This document shows positions 585 to 4,898 of a stretch of DNA of 4,898 nucleotides, in pieces. The notes under the pieces are model-generated. The model searched no databases, was not told the DNA's origin, and was given only the letters and a program-made list of their open reading frames with translations. Position 1 is the first letter of the stretch. Each line of letters begins with the position of its first letter. Made by a program: the position numbers and the translations under genes. Source of the DNA: a virus (taxonomy: Duplodnaviria; Heunggongvirae; Uroviricota; Caudoviricetes); the IMG/VR virus record IMGVR_UViG_2778261453_000012, one strand, 5' to 3'.

Positions 585-825
585 GTGTCCGTGGCAGATG
601 TGCACGAACAGGAAGATATACAGAAACGGTCCAGGTCAGACGATCAGCGTTCAGACTCCGCTCCACACGGACACCGCGACGCAGATACGCCTCTTGAAGC
701 ATATCTGCCTCATCGATCGTACAGAACAGATAGTGAAACCAGCCATACTGAGGCGCACGAAAACGCCTCCCCTGCTTAATTTCCGGGTCGGCTTCAGAAT
801 TGTGGGATTTTATGTGTTGTGTCAT
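553..825 (-). CDS. Hypothetical 90-aa protein, or the N-terminal part of a frameshifted larger gene that continues in the 1..584 frame
   Basis: ATG at 823-825 preceded by GGAG with 6-nt spacing (ccGGAGaatccgATG) and by a candidate promoter. Translation MTQHIKSHNSEADPEIKQGRRFRAPQYGWFHYLFCTIDEADMLQEAYLRRGVRV... is protein-like at the N-terminus. Confidence 0.45.
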   Translation of the reverse strand: MTQHIKSHNSEADPEIKQGRRFRAPQYGWFHYLFCTIDEADMLQEAYLRRGVRVERSLNADRLTWTVSVYLPVRAHLPRTHACYRQRVWR

Positions 826-874
826 CGGATTCTCCGGTGACAGCAGGTGTCAGTTGTTCAGGCTGACTGCGCGA

Positions 875-903
875 ATTGTAAGGCAATACGCCGGAATGTA
901 CAA
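875..903 (-). promoter_or_regulatory. Candidate sigma70 promoter for the 553..825 gene: -35 TTGTAC (903..898), 17-nt spacer, -10 TACAAT (880..875)
   Basis: Read directly on the minus strand: tTTGTACattccggcgtattgcctTACAATtcgcg. The -10 is a 5/6 match to TATAAT; it sits about 50 nt upstream of the ATG at 825. Confidence 0.35.
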
Positions 904-930
904 ACAGAAAACCCGTCAGTAAGACGGGCT
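899..930 (-). terminator. Rho-independent terminator downstream of the BOF-family gene
   Basis: Minus strand: CCCGTC-ttact-GACGGG (plus 912-928) followed immediately by TTTTCTGTTTGT. A 6-bp GC-rich stem with U-tract, 19 nt after the stop at 947. Confidence 0.6.
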
Positions 931-946
931 TAACAAGCAGGGGCGG

Positions 947-1291
947 TTACTTTAATAATTTCAGTGCCTTTACATCAACTTCAACACTGCTCAGGTCTTT
1001 ATCAATTTCACCCTCAATTCTTACTTTGTCTTTCGGAGAAACATTCTGCCCGGCCCATACGCTGTCATCAATATCCGTGACAATTGTCCCGCTATTGTCA
1101 CGAAACTCATAACGTTCATCACCCACTTTTTTAACGATGCTCCCTTCAAGGATAACCCATGCATCATCCTTCAGTTCTTTTGCCTGCGCTACTGTTGAAC
1201 GCTCTGCTTCTGGCCCCTGGAAACCACCCTGCTGTGCAAAAGCGCCAAAAGACACACCGGAAATAAGTGCTGCAATCAATACCTTTTTCAT
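947..1291 (-). CDS. YgiW/YdeI (BOF, bacterial OB-fold) family periplasmic protein, 114 aa, with N-terminal signal peptide
   Basis: MKKVLIAALISGVSFGAFA|QQGGF...: typical Sec signal with AxA cleavage site, then the QGGF start characteristic of mature BOF proteins, and a C-terminal motif ...DKVRIEGEIDKDLSSVEVDVKALKLLK. SD AGAGGA 7 nt before the ATG. Confidence 0.8.
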   Translation of the reverse strand: MKKVLIAALISGVSFGAFAQQGGFQGPEAERSTVAQAKELKDDAWVILEGSIVKKVGDERYEFRDNSGTIVTDIDDSVWAGQNVSPKDKVRIEGEIDKDLSSVEVDVKALKLLK

Positions 1292-1348
1292 TCATAGTCC
1301 TCTTTCAGAGATGAACATTCAAACAGCATTTTCAGTATGGTAAAGCGC

Positions 1349-1403
1349 GGGTGCGTTGAGGATGCCTGACACATCAGAGGTGGCGGGAGATTACTCCCCC
1401 GCC
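1349..1403 (-). promoter_or_regulatory. 3' elements of the hok transcript: fbi-like box (1349-1361, CCUCAACGCACCC on the RNA) and a 3' stem-loop (1382-1403)
   Basis: The fbi-like box is complementary to the predicted mRNA 5' end GGGUGCUUGAGG (plus 1724-1735), 12 bp with one bulged C. The stem-loop GGCGGGGGAG-uaau-CUCCCGCC lies just after the hok stop and has no U-tract, so it is not a classic terminator. Confidence 0.45.
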
Positions 1404-1410
1404 TGGTCTC

Positions 1411-1566
1411 TTACTTCTCAGATTCGTAGTCTACGAAGACAGCGACCTCCGTCTGACCGGTTCGGATTCGCACCTCGCAGAGGTCTTTCCTCGTTACCAG
1501 TGCCGTCACTATGACGGTTAAACAGATGACGATCAGGGCGATTAACATCGCCTTTTGCTGCTTCAT
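1411..1566 (-). CDS. hokD: Hok/Gef family type I toxin (51 aa small membrane toxin), closest from memory to HokD/RelF
   Basis: MKQQKAMLIALIVICLTVIVTALVTRKDLCEVRIRTGQTEVAVFVDYESEK: hydrophobic TM segment followed by the conserved TRKDLCEV.IR.G..EVA.F motif of Hok proteins. SD AAGGAG about 8 nt upstream of the ATG at 1566. Confidence 0.85.
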   Translation of the reverse strand: MKQQKAMLIALIVICLTVIVTALVTRKDLCEVRIRTGQTEVAVFVDYESEK

Positions 1567-1623
1567 AGCCTGCTTCTCCTTGCCTTTCGGCACGTAAGAG
1601 GCTAACCTACATGTGTTCAGCAT
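1411..1623 (-). CDS. Mok-like leader reading frame (70 aa), in-frame N-terminal extension of hok starting 19 codons upstream
   Basis: ATG at 1621-1623 with upstream AGG (ctgAGGctcaatccATG). Extension MLNTCRLASYVPKGKEKQA precedes the hok Met. No start codon exists in the alternative frame that is open across hok. Confidence 0.4.
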   Translation of the reverse strand: MLNTCRLASYVPKGKEKQAMKQQKAMLIALIVICLTVIVTALVTRKDLCEVRIRTGQTEVAVFVDYESEK

Positions 1624-1692
1624 GGATTGAGCCTCAGATTAATGTTAAGCGTCTTGCAGGACGCGTAATGTTAACTGGGGCTTTTCTCTATC
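1615..1692 (+). ncRNA. Candidate Sok-like antisense RNA (about 70-80 nt), antisense to the hok leader and mok start
   Basis: Plus-strand candidate promoter -35 TTGCCT (1580-1585), 17-nt spacer, -10 TAACCT (1603-1608). Downstream imperfect inverted repeat 1633-1680 (outer stem CCTCAG/CTGGGG, inner GCGTC-ttgcag-GACGC, flanked by 9-bp direct repeats TAATGTTAA) followed by CTTTTCTCT. Position and length match what is expected for Sok. The -10 is weak. Confidence 0.35.
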
Positions 1693-1770
1693 TGCCGTTG
1701 GTGTTCATGCCCGAGGCAGATAGCCTCAAGCACCCGCAGCAATTCTACTTAACTATCCTTTTCCCGCAAA
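1688..1770 (-). promoter_or_regulatory. hok promoter and 5' leader: -35 TTGCGG (1769..1764), 16-nt spacer, -10 TAGAAT (1747..1742), predicted TSS near 1735, tac-like 5' box (1735..1724), leader stem with 9-bp perfect inverted repeat (1688-1696 / 1715-1723)
   Basis: Elements read directly from the sequence. The predicted transcript 5' end GGGUGCUUGAGGCUAUCUGCC resembles my memory of the R1 hok mRNA 5' end (GGCGCUUGAGGCUUUCUGCC). Confidence 0.45.
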
Positions 1771-1856
1771 CCGTTTTTATCCCCAGCGGCAAATCGAATA
1801 CACCACCAGCGCCACCGCCATCGCAATTCCTACCGTTGTGAATGCTTCAGGCCAGG

Positions 1857-2414
1857 TCATTGATTCACCTCCTGCGGCGGTTCTGGTAGCGACATCCAGT
1901 GGGTTGCTTGCCTAAGATCATTACCCGGACTAACTGCTATACCTCCGCGCCGGAACGTGCCTCCGAGATAGCGTGCGGAATATATTAATGGCCCAGCCTC
2001 GCTATCGATATTCATCGAAATAAGCACGTTCTGGCTCTTTTCAGGCATTCGCTCAGTACAGCTTATCCAGCCATCCAGAGTTATCGGAGATCTGGTTGAC
2101 GTTTCCGAGATTTCCCGAAAATTGTTGGTTGACGAATTCTTATTTTCCCGAAAGTTTCCGGCCTGAAGCATGGCGACGCGGCAGGCGTTCCAGCCATCAG
2201 CATATGTTTTAGTTACACCGTCGAGATGGCAGGTAAGCAAATCCATTTCATCAGGCACTACCATTGCTATCGGCTCTGCTTCCAGTGATGCCAGCGCGAT
2301 ACGAAACACATTAGCCAGCAGGCTGTCTGAAGACTTGTTATCGTGCGCCGAGTCGCTCAGGAAGCCTGTGATGTATGATTTAATCTCCGCGCGTTCTCTG
2401 GTAATAGTGCTCAT
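1857..2414 (-). CDS. DUF551-type prophage protein, 185 aa (variable N-terminal domain plus C-terminal DUF551-like domain)
   Basis: C-terminal region ...DGWISCTERMPEKSQNVLISMN...ATHWMSLPEPPQEV matches the W-I-S-x-x-E-R-(L/M)-P-E ... T-H-W-M-P-L-P-E-P-P signature I recall for DUF551. ATG at 2412-2414 is one nt after the stop of the upstream gene, with AAGGA inside that gene's 3' end. Confidence 0.75.
   Translation of the reverse strand: MSTITRERAEIKSYITGFLSDSAHDNKSSDSLLANVFRIALASLEAEPIAMVVPDEMDLLTCHLDGVTKTYADGWNACRVAMLQAGNFRENKNSSTNNFREISETSTRSPITLDGWISCTERMPEKSQNVLISMNIDSEAGPLIYSARYLGGTFRRGGIAVSPGNDLRQATHWMSLPEPPQEVNQ
2094..2159 (-). repeat. Imperfect tandem duplication of a 33-bp (11-codon) unit inside the DUF551-protein gene
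   Basis: ggttgacg at 2094-2101 and again at 2127-2134; tttcccgaaa at 2111-2120 and 2144-2153. Protein-level repeat NFRENKNSSTN / NFREISETSTR in the inter-domain linker. Confidence 0.55.
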
Positions 2415-2415
2415 A

Positions 2416-2634
2416 TCAGTTTTCCTTATACGGATTAATTTTATTGTGCAGTGCGCTGAATGATTCCCATGTCACATCGGTATATAGCTCAATAACTGGT
2501 TCAAATGTCCTTCCAATTATCCAGACCAGTAATAGCGGGGATATCGGTATCATCAACACTATAAACAGAATGAAAAACAGAAACTCTGTTGTTCTGCTCT
2601 TTCGTGGGTAATTTTTTTCTAAATAATGTTTCAT
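2416..2634 (-). CDS. Small hydrophobic membrane protein, 72 aa, function unknown
   Basis: MKHYLEKNYPRKSRTTEFLFFILFIVLMIPISPLLLVWIIGRTF...: basic N-terminus followed by a ~25-residue hydrophobic segment. Sits in an AT-rich islet (about 36% GC by eye) and is translationally coupled to the downstream DUF551 gene. Confidence 0.6.
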   Translation of the reverse strand: MKHYLEKNYPRKSRTTEFLFFILFIVLMIPISPLLLVWIIGRTFEPVIELYTDVTWESFSALHNKINPYKEN

Positions 2635-2640
2635 TTCTTA

Positions 2641-2662
2641 CCGCCCTTTCGGGCGGCCTCCT
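2641..2662 (-). promoter_or_regulatory. Structured translation-initiation region: perfect SD AGGAGG (2662..2657) separated from the ATG (2634) by a 6-bp GC stem with GAAA tetraloop (2656..2641)
   Basis: Minus strand: catcAGGAGG-CCGCCC-GAAA-GGGCGG-taagaaATG. The SD is 22 nt from the ATG in linear sequence, about 6 nt if the hairpin is folded. No U-tract on either strand, so not a terminator. Confidence 0.4.
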
Positions 2663-2761
2663 GATGTTCTGAGGGTGCAGGAATCCCTCCGGTTAAGGAT
2701 TTAATAAAAATCGTTTCTGATTTAAATCTTCAGTATTTAGTTGTTAGTTGGTTTATCGCCT

Positions 2762-3073
2762 TTATGCTTCAGCCTTATTTCGCAACCAGACACAAACCGG
2801 GCCATCTTCCGTATCATGAATGGAACCAATAAACCAGCCATCGCCCTCTGGTCGTTCCGGTTCCCATGCAGAAATATCAGCATCACACGCATCAAGGTCA
2901 GCACATCCTTCATCTCTGAAGCAGAGGACGTATTGAAGATTATTTTCCTCCATCCAGGCGTTAAACTCTTCCGTTGAAATATATTCCCGACCATCACAGA
3001 ATTTTTCATATTCAGGATGTGTCCAGTAGCCATATCCGTCACGAACTACCGGCATTTCTTTAATTTCACTCAC
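2762..3073 (-). CDS. Hypothetical acidic protein, 103 aa
   Basis: GTG start at 3071-3073 preceded by perfect SD (gcAGGAGGttaacaGTG); overlaps the upstream stop by 8 nt. Sequence VSEIKEMPVVRDGYGYWTHPEYEKFCDGREY... is D/E-rich. An internal ATG at 3053-3055 is an alternative start. Confidence 0.65.
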   Translation of the reverse strand: MSEIKEMPVVRDGYGYWTHPEYEKFCDGREYISTEEFNAWMEENNLQYVLCFRDEGCADLDACDADISAWEPERPEGDGWFIGSIHDTEDGPVCVWLRNKAEA

Positions 3074-3293
3074 TGTTAACCTCCTGCAACGCTACACGAT
3101 ACGCCTTCTTTATCCACGCCTTACTGCCATATAATTTCGTCTTCATAATAAACACACCTGCACGACTCGCCGATATCCCCGGACAGGTTAACAGCACAGC
3201 ATCCACCACACGGTTATGCTTCCGAAACTCCATTACAGTACTGCTGATAACCACCTGCCCCACCGGGCCGTAATCCTGATACAGGATTTTCAC
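3066..3293 (-). CDS. Hypothetical protein, 75 aa
   Basis: GTG start at 3291-3293 preceded by AGGAGG with 8-nt spacing; start overlaps the upstream TGA (GTGA overlap), indicating translational coupling. Confidence 0.55.
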   Translation of the reverse strand: MKILYQDYGPVGQVVISSTVMEFRKHNRVVDAVLLTCPGISASRAGVFIMKTKLYGSKAWIKKAYRVALQEVNSE

Positions 3294-3571
3294 GCAGACA
3301 CCCTCCTGTCGAAATAAACGTAGTTATTCACTATGCGCAGCGGCATGCCTAATTTTCTGGCAATTTCCCTTCTTTGCATGCCTCTCTGATGCAGTTGCCG
3401 CGCCAGCTCAATATCACGCTGAGAATATTTTGCCAACGGGTGAAAATCACCACGTAACATCATGCTGATGCCCAGCTCCCGTGCCTTCGTTCTCACTGCC
3501 GCTTCAGTTCGTCCGATAAGTGCGCCAACGCTTTTTACCTTCATCGTTCCCGCACACTGCCGGAGTATCAT
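3290..3571 (-). CDS. Putative helix-turn-helix DNA-binding protein, about 85-93 aa (start ambiguous: ATG 3571 or ATG 3544)
   Basis: Two HTH-like segments: KSVGALIGRTEAAVRTKARELGIS and YSQRDIELARQLHQRGMQRREIARKLGMPLRIV. The track's longer form begins with GTG at 3694 inside the upstream gene; I prefer an internal ATG downstream of the upstream stop at 3604. Confidence 0.55.
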   Translation of the reverse strand: MILRQCAGTMKVKSVGALIGRTEAAVRTKARELGISMMLRGDFHPLAKYSQRDIELARQLHQRGMQRREIARKLGMPLRIVNNYVYFDRRVSA

Positions 3572-3603
3572 GATTTCCGCCCGGCACCACGTCTTCCACC
3601 CAC

Positions 3604-4266
3604 TCACCGCTGCTGTTCTCTGGTGGCGGTAATATCCCGGAGAATATCCCGGCACTTGTTCAGCTCCCGCAGCGCGGCGCAGACTCGCTCCCACTTCTGA
3701 ACCTGACCTTTTGCCCGGCGCAGCTCGCGGTTAGCCACATGCAGCGATGGTAAAATCAGACCATCCGGATGCTTTCTGGTGAACGACGGCTGTGACTGCA
3801 CTGTGACCGCCACACTTTCCGTTTTTATTTCTTCCTGTGTTTCCGCTTCCCCGACTGGTAACGCAACACCTGCTGGCTGAGGAAAGGCTTTACCATCCGT
3901 TTCCGTTATGGATGCGGCTTTCGGCTCTGCCGGTAAATCAGCGCCCGGTATGCAGTACCGAAATTTACCGCCCTGATTCACGCGAATCAGACGCCCTTTG
4001 CTGATTGCCATGGCCAGTGATGAATTCGCCCGGCGGGAGGTAATCCCGAACATCAGTGCCAGCTCATCCGCCGTTTGTGGGCCATGATGTTCAATCGCCT
4101 CAGTCAGCATTTGCGCTGTCACTTTCGGTACCGGTGACACTGGTTCACTTTCACCAGCCTGAATCAGCCACCACATCGAACCCTTGTTATCCGCTTCACC
4201 ACGGCGCTTCAGTTTCCACAGTTCGTTGACAGCATCTTCGCGGCTGATTCCAAGGCGCGATGCCAC
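3604..4266 (-). CDS. Hypothetical winged-helix-like DNA-binding protein, 220 aa (start uncertain: GTG 4266 overlapping the DnaC-like stop, or internal ATG near 4176 with AAGG SD)
   Basis: Segments [21 protein letters not shown] and [39 protein letters not shown] look like winged-helix motifs; the C-terminus is charged and helical-looking ([31 protein letters not shown]). Confidence 0.6.
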
Positions 4267-4697
4267 TACACGCTCATGACATCAGACACGGTGACGATAA
4301 TCACGCTGCGCCCCTTCGCCATCAGCCGGTTACCCATCGCCGCTGCAAGGTGATTTTTCCCGGTGCCGGTTTTACCGCTGAACACAAAATTCGTGCACCC
4401 GGTCATCAGTTCGTCAGCTATGGATTTGGCCTGGCTCAGCGCGTATTTTTGCCCGTCGTTCTGCACCTGATAATTCGCAAACGAGCATTTGCTGTGCAGA
4501 GGCTGGATGCCCGAACGATTCAGGATTTTTTCCACCCGCAACTGGTGATTCTGGCGGTTAATCTCCTCGCTGCGTTTTCGTCCTTCAACAAGTTGCCATT
4601 CCCGCCACTCCTCCACCGTCCGGTACGGTGGAACCGACGCCTGTGGTGCAAGTCTGCGAATACGTTCAAGAACCCCGGCTGCCGCAATGTTTTTCAT
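4266..4697 (-). CDS. DnaC-family replicative helicase loader homologue, truncated: 143 aa covering the N-terminal region and Walker A only
   Basis: ...[73 protein letters not shown] aligns to E. coli DnaC (NCSFENY...[18 protein letters not shown]...GKSVLIITVADIMSAM) as I remember it. The ORF ends with TAG where DnaC continues about 100 more residues (Walker B DLLVIDE absent). SD AGGGGG upstream. Confidence 0.75.
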
Positions 4698-4703
4698 GCC
4701 ACA

Positions 4704-4898
4704 TCACCCCCTGAATCCCGGCGGAATTTCGGTATCCGGTTCAGAAATATGATTCACACAACGCTGGTTGTTCGTGCCGCTTACCGGGAGCAACCAGGGG
4801 TTTTCAAAATTCCGGTCCGGCCCAAAAAACGTCGTCGCTCGCTGAACAAATTCCGTTCCCGTTTTCCCGGTAGCCGCCAGGTATCTTGCGTAACGCCT
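4704..4898 (-). CDS. 3' end (C-terminal 64 aa) of an upstream replication-module gene, partial at the window edge
   Basis: Hand translation of the minus frame from 4898: RRYARYLAATGKTGTEFVQRATTFFGPDRNFENPWLLPVSGTNNQRCVNHISEPDTEIPPGFRG*, stop TGA at 4704-4706, 6 nt before the DnaC-like ATG. Function inferred only from position. Confidence 0.45.
   Translation of the reverse strand, partial: RRYARYLAATGKTGTEFVQRATTFFGPDRNFENPWLLPVSGTNNQRCVNHISEPDTEIPPGFRG

Follow-up and report, generated by a model that had tools for sequence, protein, structure and literature searches.

E. coli DnaC (PDB 6QEL/6QEM) is the described protein with which the locus reported here can be most directly compared. In the published DnaC numbering, the helicase-binding domain (HBD) occupies residues 1-75, the Walker A lysine is K112, the Walker B motif includes E170 and sensor I is N203 (PMC8213410). 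Further along the protein are R216, R220 and the sensor II residue R237, and the residues that bind single-stranded DNA are K143, F146, S177 and Y179 (PMC8213410). On its own, the HBD does not sequester DnaB but loads and activates it (PMC8213410). A second described system is Rac, the cryptic prophage of E. coli K-12, in which the gene for the initiator YdaU is followed by ydaV (b1360, 248 aa), a 22-bp spacer and ydaW, a DUF1627 gene. A third is IstB, the AAA+ transposition helper of IS21-family elements (PF01695).

The DNA analyzed here, which we refer to as the window, is a stretch of 4,898 nucleotides. Exact look-up of the 143-aa loader product that it encodes identified the window as the reverse complement of the whole 4898-bp draft contig NOCO01000082.1 of assembly GCA_002549675.1. 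All of the genes that bear on the truncated loader are on the minus strand. The minus-strand order begins with the 3′ end of a replication initiator gene, the loader stub, a DUF1627 remnant, the gene for a 93-aa DNA-binding protein and two small ORFs, and it continues with DUF4014, DUF551, hok/sok, a gene for a YgiW/YdeI-type protein, a 90-aa ORF and DUF968. In complete genomes the equivalent block comes after a repressor gene of the LexA type, cro and a gene of the YdaT family, which places it in the early-right part of a lambdoid prophage of the Rac-like kind; this prophage is taken to be one of Shiga-toxin-type E. coli. The initiator (O-like/replisome organiser) 3′ end is found at 4704..4898 (-), where it is cut by the contig end, and its intact counterpart, WP_001262348.1 (360 aa), matched phrog_3729 'replication initiation protein' with an E value of 1e-255. 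The position of this initiator end means that the loader fragment sits within the replication module of the prophage. The core order of genes is the same as in K-12 Rac, and K-12 YdaV shares 198 of 248 residues (80%) with the intact relative of the window loader. Rac differs from the window prophage in that its ydaV is full length, in that the 3′ end of its ydaW was cut by another deletion, and in that its initiator YdaU (DUF1376) is not of the same type as the 360-aa phrog_3729 initiator.

The loader ORF at 4266..4697 (-) comprises 143 codons and a TAG stop. Codons 1-143 of a DnaC/YdaV-type helicase-loader gene, the native length of which is 248 codons, were assigned to 4269..4697 (-) by DNA identity and profile matches. 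The 143-aa stub matched PHROG phrog_50 'DnaC-like helicase loader' with an E value of 6e-40, and it matched Pfam IstB_IS21 with an E value of 1.8e-7 over profile positions 40-132 of 238 only. At the DNA level it is 100% identical to the 5′ 430 nt of the WP_000788760.1 gene of E. coli O103:H2 12009. The Walker A motif or P-loop, GKTGTGKN, is located at residues 108-115 (4353..4376, minus strand); it has the GxxGxGK form of DnaC/DnaI-type AAA+ loaders, and its K114 aligns with DnaC K112. The stub retains the HBD (approximately residues 1-77), AAA+ beta1, Walker A, alpha1, beta2 and the start of alpha2. The assignment of the HBD is a prediction from the alignment of residues 2-103 of the intact relative with DnaC residues 2-101. 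When the intact relative was aligned with 6QEL, stub residue V143 was the equivalent of DnaC A141. Compared with E. coli DnaC, therefore, the stub spans the HBD and the Walker A segment and ends at the A141 equivalent, and it represents a prophage paralogue and not the host gene. IstB is the Pfam family that scored the stub, and IstB chains in the PDB matched the intact protein at approximately 1e-8. However, the context here is a phage replication module and not an IS21 element, and the match to DnaC is far stronger.

The motifs that follow this point in DnaC are missing from the stub. Walker B (DnaC D169/E170, LLVxDEIG) was absent from all frames of the window; in the intact relative it reads DLLVLDEIG at residues 164-172, inside the deleted part. 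The stub has no equivalent of sensor I N203, the arginine coupler R216, the arginine finger R220 or sensor II R237, and none of these was found elsewhere in the window. The single-stranded DNA-binding patch (K143/F146/S177/Y179) is also absent from the stub, its positions falling just past the truncation point. Searches of the window with tblastn and blastn for the 105 lost C-terminal residues and the 391 bp of lost DNA found neither at any other place in it. A full-length loader has approximately 245-250 residues, compared with the 143 aa of this product. Among 495 homologues of the stub, the length mode was 246-248 aa, and the shorter entries were contig-end partials, frameshifts and fusions. 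In addition, residues 2-243 of the intact relative were aligned with E. coli DnaC, which has 245 residues, over its positions 2-242 (6QEL; E=1.7e-73). These comparisons indicate that the loader family is not naturally short and that its full-length members do not end at residue 143. The original prediction had described a DnaC-like ORF that runs through GKTGTGKN and the next strand and then meets a TAG, with the Walker B, sensor and arginine-finger region missing downstream in all frames. This was borne out, and the two circumstances that could have explained it differently, namely family members that end naturally at this point or a C-terminal half that is encoded elsewhere, were excluded, the latter within the window.

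Near-identical prophages are present in complete E. coli genomes at 99.8-100% identity, and the prophage of O103:H2 12009 (L001) is one example. When window positions 3600-4898 were compared by megablast with 5,426 complete E. coli genomes, many matches of 99.9% were obtained. All of the best 30 genomes listed gave a two-piece match that spanned 1690 nt, as against 1299 nt in the window, and in the same 30 both the 'ATP-binding protein' gene and the 'DUF1627' gene were intact. In 797 records the undeleted 1690-bp arrangement was covered to 80% or more. By blastn, bases 1-631 of the reverse strand of the window corresponded to L001 4001-4631 with 100% identity, and bases 630-4898 corresponded to L001 5021-9289 with 99.8% identity. 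The window is without L001 4632-5022, a block of 391 bp. The deletion junction maps to 4267..4270, where 4270 is the last base of the left side, the GT at 4269-4268 is ambiguous and 4267 is the first base of the right side. This GT is the only microhomology between the deletion ends (2 nt), and no flanking direct repeat was found around the lost 391-bp block. There was no evidence of an IS at the junction that would point to an IS-mediated or IS-excision-linked deletion; the IS3-family and IS2 insertions described below sit elsewhere. The intact L001 reads ...GAGCGTGT|TGCATG... at one end of the block and ...CACAGGT|AGTGGC... at the other, and the window reads ...GAGCGTGTAGTGGC... across the junction.

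In L001, the loader gene (4202-4948, 248 codons, WP_000788760.1) and the DUF1627 gene (4970-5686, 238 codons, WP_000450617.1) are in the same frame. The block that is missing from the window consists of loader codons 144-248 (the 3′ 105 codons), the 21-bp intergenic spacer TAATTTTTGTTGGAGGACGTTTTAATG, which contains a GGAGGA Shine-Dalgarno sequence, and DUF1627 codons 1-18, METVFDALKALKKASSQV. Because 391 equals 1 modulo 3, the loader frame is shifted by +1 and runs into a TAG. This stop codon lies across the junction at 4266..4268 (-), in the reading ...GTG T|AG TGG..., and it is assembled from both sides, with the T supplied by the loader side and the AG by the DUF1627 side.

The 5′-truncated DUF1627 gene, consisting of native codons 19-238 and the stop, is located at 3604..4266 (-), as determined with Pfam and by comparison with WP_000450617.1. 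The ORF encodes 220 aa and starts at a GTG, the first G of which is the last base of the TAG. Its product clearly belongs to the DUF1627 family (Pfam PF07789), residues 58-212 of 220 being aligned with profile positions 1-155 of 155 at an E value of 7.9e-79. The GTG at 4266-4264 is, however, the native Val19 codon and not the native start. The native ATG, 18 codons and the GGAGGA have been lost, and there is no good Shine-Dalgarno sequence upstream of the GTG. The remnant is without the conserved N-terminal segment that begins at Met1 (METVFDALKA...) and that has its own ATG and Shine-Dalgarno sequence. The intact 238-aa protein WP_000450617.1 matches phrog_630 from position 1 and agrees with K-12 YdaW at each of its first 10 residues, which shows that the lost N-terminus belongs to the conserved family. 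The 220-aa product has been recorded as WP_097921345.1, and this GTG-started 'DUF1627 protein' is a truncation product and not a natural isoform. Coupled re-initiation through the TAG/GTG overlap could in principle take place at the DUF1627 remnant. As for the nature of the DUF1627 protein, which the original prediction had called a winged-helix protein, the Pfam matches that bear on this label were all below threshold (AlkZ-like, E=4.5e-4; AbiEi_4; HTH_Crp_2), as were the PHROG matches to phrog_633 'transcriptional regulator' (8.8e-5) and to a Ren-like family (5e-4), and a sequence search of the PDB with this protein found no relative and nothing useful.

These results sharpen several parts of the original prediction. 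It had placed a deletion or recombination junction near position 4266; the alignment with the intact relative that it had proposed, together with the 391-bp gap in the blastn comparison with L001, located the breakpoint at 4270|4267, 1-4 nt from the estimate. The TAG that it had noted after Walker A is present, with the correction that the junction itself creates this stop through the +1 frameshift. The overlap of the next gene's GTG with the stop is real in that one G is shared, but this GTG is the native Val19 codon of a gene that has been 5′-truncated by 18 codons. The abutting gene had also been described as unrelated. It did not arrive by recombination; in prophages of this type it naturally follows the loader gene, in the same order as in Rac ydaU-ydaV-ydaW.

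The distribution of the junction was determined with short probes. A junction 50-mer, in which neither half is able to seed a match alone, matched neither GenBank phages nor any of the 5,426 complete E. coli genomes, and a junction 30-mer had no match in GTDB species representatives or JGI metagenomes. Carriers of the junction were found solely through exact look-up of the 220-aa product. WP_097921345.1, the existence of which depends on the junction, was present on five contigs, and the exact junction 30-mer was found in three of them. One of these three (L012) is a 146-kb contig of GCA_039763465.1, which differs from the window at 1 of 4898 nt, and the other two (L013, GCA_012247705.1, and L015, GCA_046054415.1) are identical to the window. 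With the window itself, this makes a total of four separately deposited assemblies, and a mis-join is ruled out by the agreement of all four on a junction whose ends have 2 nt of homology. Comparison with related prophages, another of the checks that had been proposed, therefore found the truncation in three further assemblies and in none of the 5,426 complete genomes. Our data indicate that the deletion is real, though rare, and marks one lineage; its junction can serve to identify a small lineage of E. coli precisely. In the DUF1627 remnant, a single substitution relative to O103:H2 12009, at window position 3906 (-), changes ...ASIAETDG... to ...ASITETDG... in the DUF1627 product. The ASITETDG variant is carried by the 220-aa product in all of the deletion-bearing contigs, which makes it a second lineage marker. 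The stub ORF retains the native start and the native upstream context, and no gene was called over the stub in the annotations of L012 or L013.

The same loader gene has been damaged in other strains as well. In O145 strains it is broken by an IS3-family element at approximately codon 30 (L004 792-2098, E. coli O145 RM11626-C1), and further truncated or fused loader alleles occur. Independent breakage by an IS3-family element, together with these other alleles, shows that decay of the loader gene recurs. The other decayed copies (the O145 IS3-family copy and the Rac ydaV fusions P0108, P0110 and P0117) leave N-terminal stubs of 30 to approximately 137 residues. Their breakpoints and mechanisms differ from those of the window copy, and none of them has the junction of the window. 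In O103:H2 PV16-126 (L005 3246-4572), an IS2 was found inside the DUF4014 gene of the same prophage.

It is very probable that a single 391-bp deletion made a lineage-specific pair of pseudogenes and that this is a case of ordinary prophage decay. In the proposed sequence of events, one deletion by illegitimate recombination, at the level of microhomology, struck the prophage replication module and took the 3′ 105 codons of the loader gene, the 21-bp spacer in which the ribosome-binding site lies and codons 1-18 of the DUF1627 gene. The shifted loader frame then met the TAG built by the junction, and a pair of gene remnants was left. The loader stub is without any of the elements needed for ATP hydrolysis, oligomerisation and single-stranded DNA binding, and it is likely to be non-functional and probably unstable, with 66 residues of an incomplete AAA+ fold. 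Without complementation by another copy, the prophage would be unable to load DnaB at its origin, a prediction that bears on whether it can still replicate after induction. The event itself would be one of neutral decay in a repressed or defective prophage. Accidental decay is favored because one event harmed two adjacent genes, because the deletion shows no spreading, because the stub was left uncalled in L012 and L013, and because the gene was broken independently elsewhere. We infer, rather than observe, that the stub has no activity at all, as the isolated DnaC HBD does act on DnaB in vitro (PMC8213410). Likewise, the persistence of the deletion in at least four sequenced isolates is compatible with neutrality and is no proof of it. 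A pseudogene pair that is derived from a deletion is an already catalogued kind of prophage decay. Both ORFs deserve to be labelled as pseudogene remnants of one deletion, and the significance of the finding extends little beyond annotation.

A two-step origin of the same remnants is unlikely. According to this history, codon 144 was first changed from TTG to a TAG nonsense codon, and deletion of the dead 3′ portion of the gene followed, between GTAG microhomologies, so that the homology involved was 4 nt instead of 2 nt; the end product and the functional verdict would be unchanged. With the base of the TAG in place, the sequence common to the two deletion ends is indeed GTAG, and a metagenome contig with a related allele (L016) carries a TTG-to-TAG change at codon 144 (2806-2808) with the rest of the gene intact. 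However, the allele in L016 is not that of the window, and the contig came to light only through a look-up restricted to 143-aa products, which is a form of ascertainment. In addition, no complete genome matched the window allele with the TAG at 100%, in a search with a query that cannot separate GAC-plus-TAG from wild type.

We consider it very unlikely, from what the sequence predicts, that the stub is an active fragment, that is, a DnaB-binding protein that would be expressed on derepression of the operon and that would either sequester DnaB or act as an ATPase-free loader or activator, with an effect on host replication or on superinfecting phages. Residues 1-77 do match the DnaC helicase-binding domain, and the native 5′ end is retained by the ORF. 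The isolated HBD of E. coli DnaC was found to load DnaB at approximately half of the wild-type level and to stimulate unwinding in vitro (PMC8213410), and for this reason a soluble stub would be expected to cause unregulated loading or activation, not sequestration. The helicase-sequestering fragment that the original prediction had offered as one of its two readings is thus without support, since the isolated domain loads and activates DnaB (PMC8213410), while its other reading, a decaying pseudogene, fits the data. The stub also differs from the isolated domain in carrying a further 66 residues, which belong to an incomplete AAA+ fold (beta1, P-loop, alpha1 and beta2, with the remainder of the sheet missing) and are expected to misfold. 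The junction is confined to a handful of assemblies, is found in 0 of the 5,426 complete genomes and gives no indication of having spread or been selected. The deletion also harms the neighbouring gene, as an accident would, and neither annotation of the carrier contigs L012 and L013 calls the stub. Several independent alleles are cut at residues 136-143, but this clustering is ascertainment-biased because the query consisted of residues 1-143. It is highly improbable that the stub engages DnaB without ATP control on derepression, thereby modulating replication or blocking phages, and that the truncations at residues 136-143 reflect selection or a hot spot. A stub that bound DnaB would represent a naturally occurring loader fragment free of ATPase activity; the data give no pointer to this, and residual DnaB binding by the stub is unlikely to matter.

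An assembly or sequencing artefact, in which the real genome has the 391 bp and these were dropped from a short draft contig in the presence of several similar prophages, is almost certainly not the explanation. In its favor are the small size of the draft contig that forms the window (4.9 kb), the 5-9 places of partial similarity in related genomes, and two contigs of other assemblies (L003 and L014) that stop or start exactly at the junction in a way that suggests an assembly-graph fork. Against it, the identical junction is present in four separately deposited assemblies, in one case within a 146-kb contig, its ends share 2 nt, which is insufficient for a k-mer mis-join, and the deleted block is bounded neither by repeat or mosaic edges nor by flanking repeats. 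A collapsed repeat was considered separately and rejected. In 60 spread partial matches, the edges were found at query positions 133, 193-199, 950, 1079, 1186 and 1647 and none was near 631/1022, and the lack of a flanking direct repeat also rules it out.

With regard to the contig ends, L003 ends at window position 4270, 2 nt before the junction, and L014 starts at window position 4267, exactly at the junction. These ends are probably the result of an assembly-graph fork caused by a co-resident intact copy, in addition to the bias of an exact-product look-up; as another explanation, an IS may be present at the site. A second intact copy would account for the contig breaks in GCA_023434805.1 and GCA_002006965.1. 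The contig ends at codon 143 (L003 and L017-L021) and the start of L014 were also considered as signs of a hot spot. This was rejected, as an exact-sequence look-up returns only contigs that are cut at that codon and the pile-up at codon 143 is therefore mostly ascertainment. Partial products in the same protein cluster spanned 105-156 aa.

In ydaV of Rac, three different deletions have a common left breakpoint, within 1 nt, in the sequence GGTTACC at codons 136/137. The breakpoint is at approximately 4407 in L007, 4410 in L008 and 4410 in L010, which is equivalent to approximately 3393 in K-12 (L006), and the shared sequence reads ...GTGATTGTGGTTA|CCGTGG.... The right partners of the three deletions are an in-frame DUF1627 C-terminus, a phage lysozyme C-terminus and the chromosome past the right end of Rac. 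Two of the three codon 136/137 deletions were seen in independent sources, and none was found among 60 spread rows of complete genomes. The GGTTACC in Rac ydaV may be a breakage hot spot, a reading that is subject to query-driven ascertainment bias.

Two other features of the window were observed. A hok/sok type I toxin-antitoxin locus occupies window positions 1411-1735 (-). The hok coding sequence is at 1411-1566 (-), and an upstream-extended ORF of 70 aa covers 1411-1623. In an Rfam scan sok was the sole match (1561-1735, minus strand; 113.5 bits, E=3.7e-26), and it is unrelated to the loader deletion. The ORF list also contains a GTG-started ORF of 134 aa at 3290-3694 (-), which overlaps the 3′ end of the DUF1627 gene. 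In this region, annotated genomes call just the 93-aa DNA-binding protein (window 3290-3571), which matched phrog_323 'transcriptional regulator, D5-like' with an E value of 5.5e-23.
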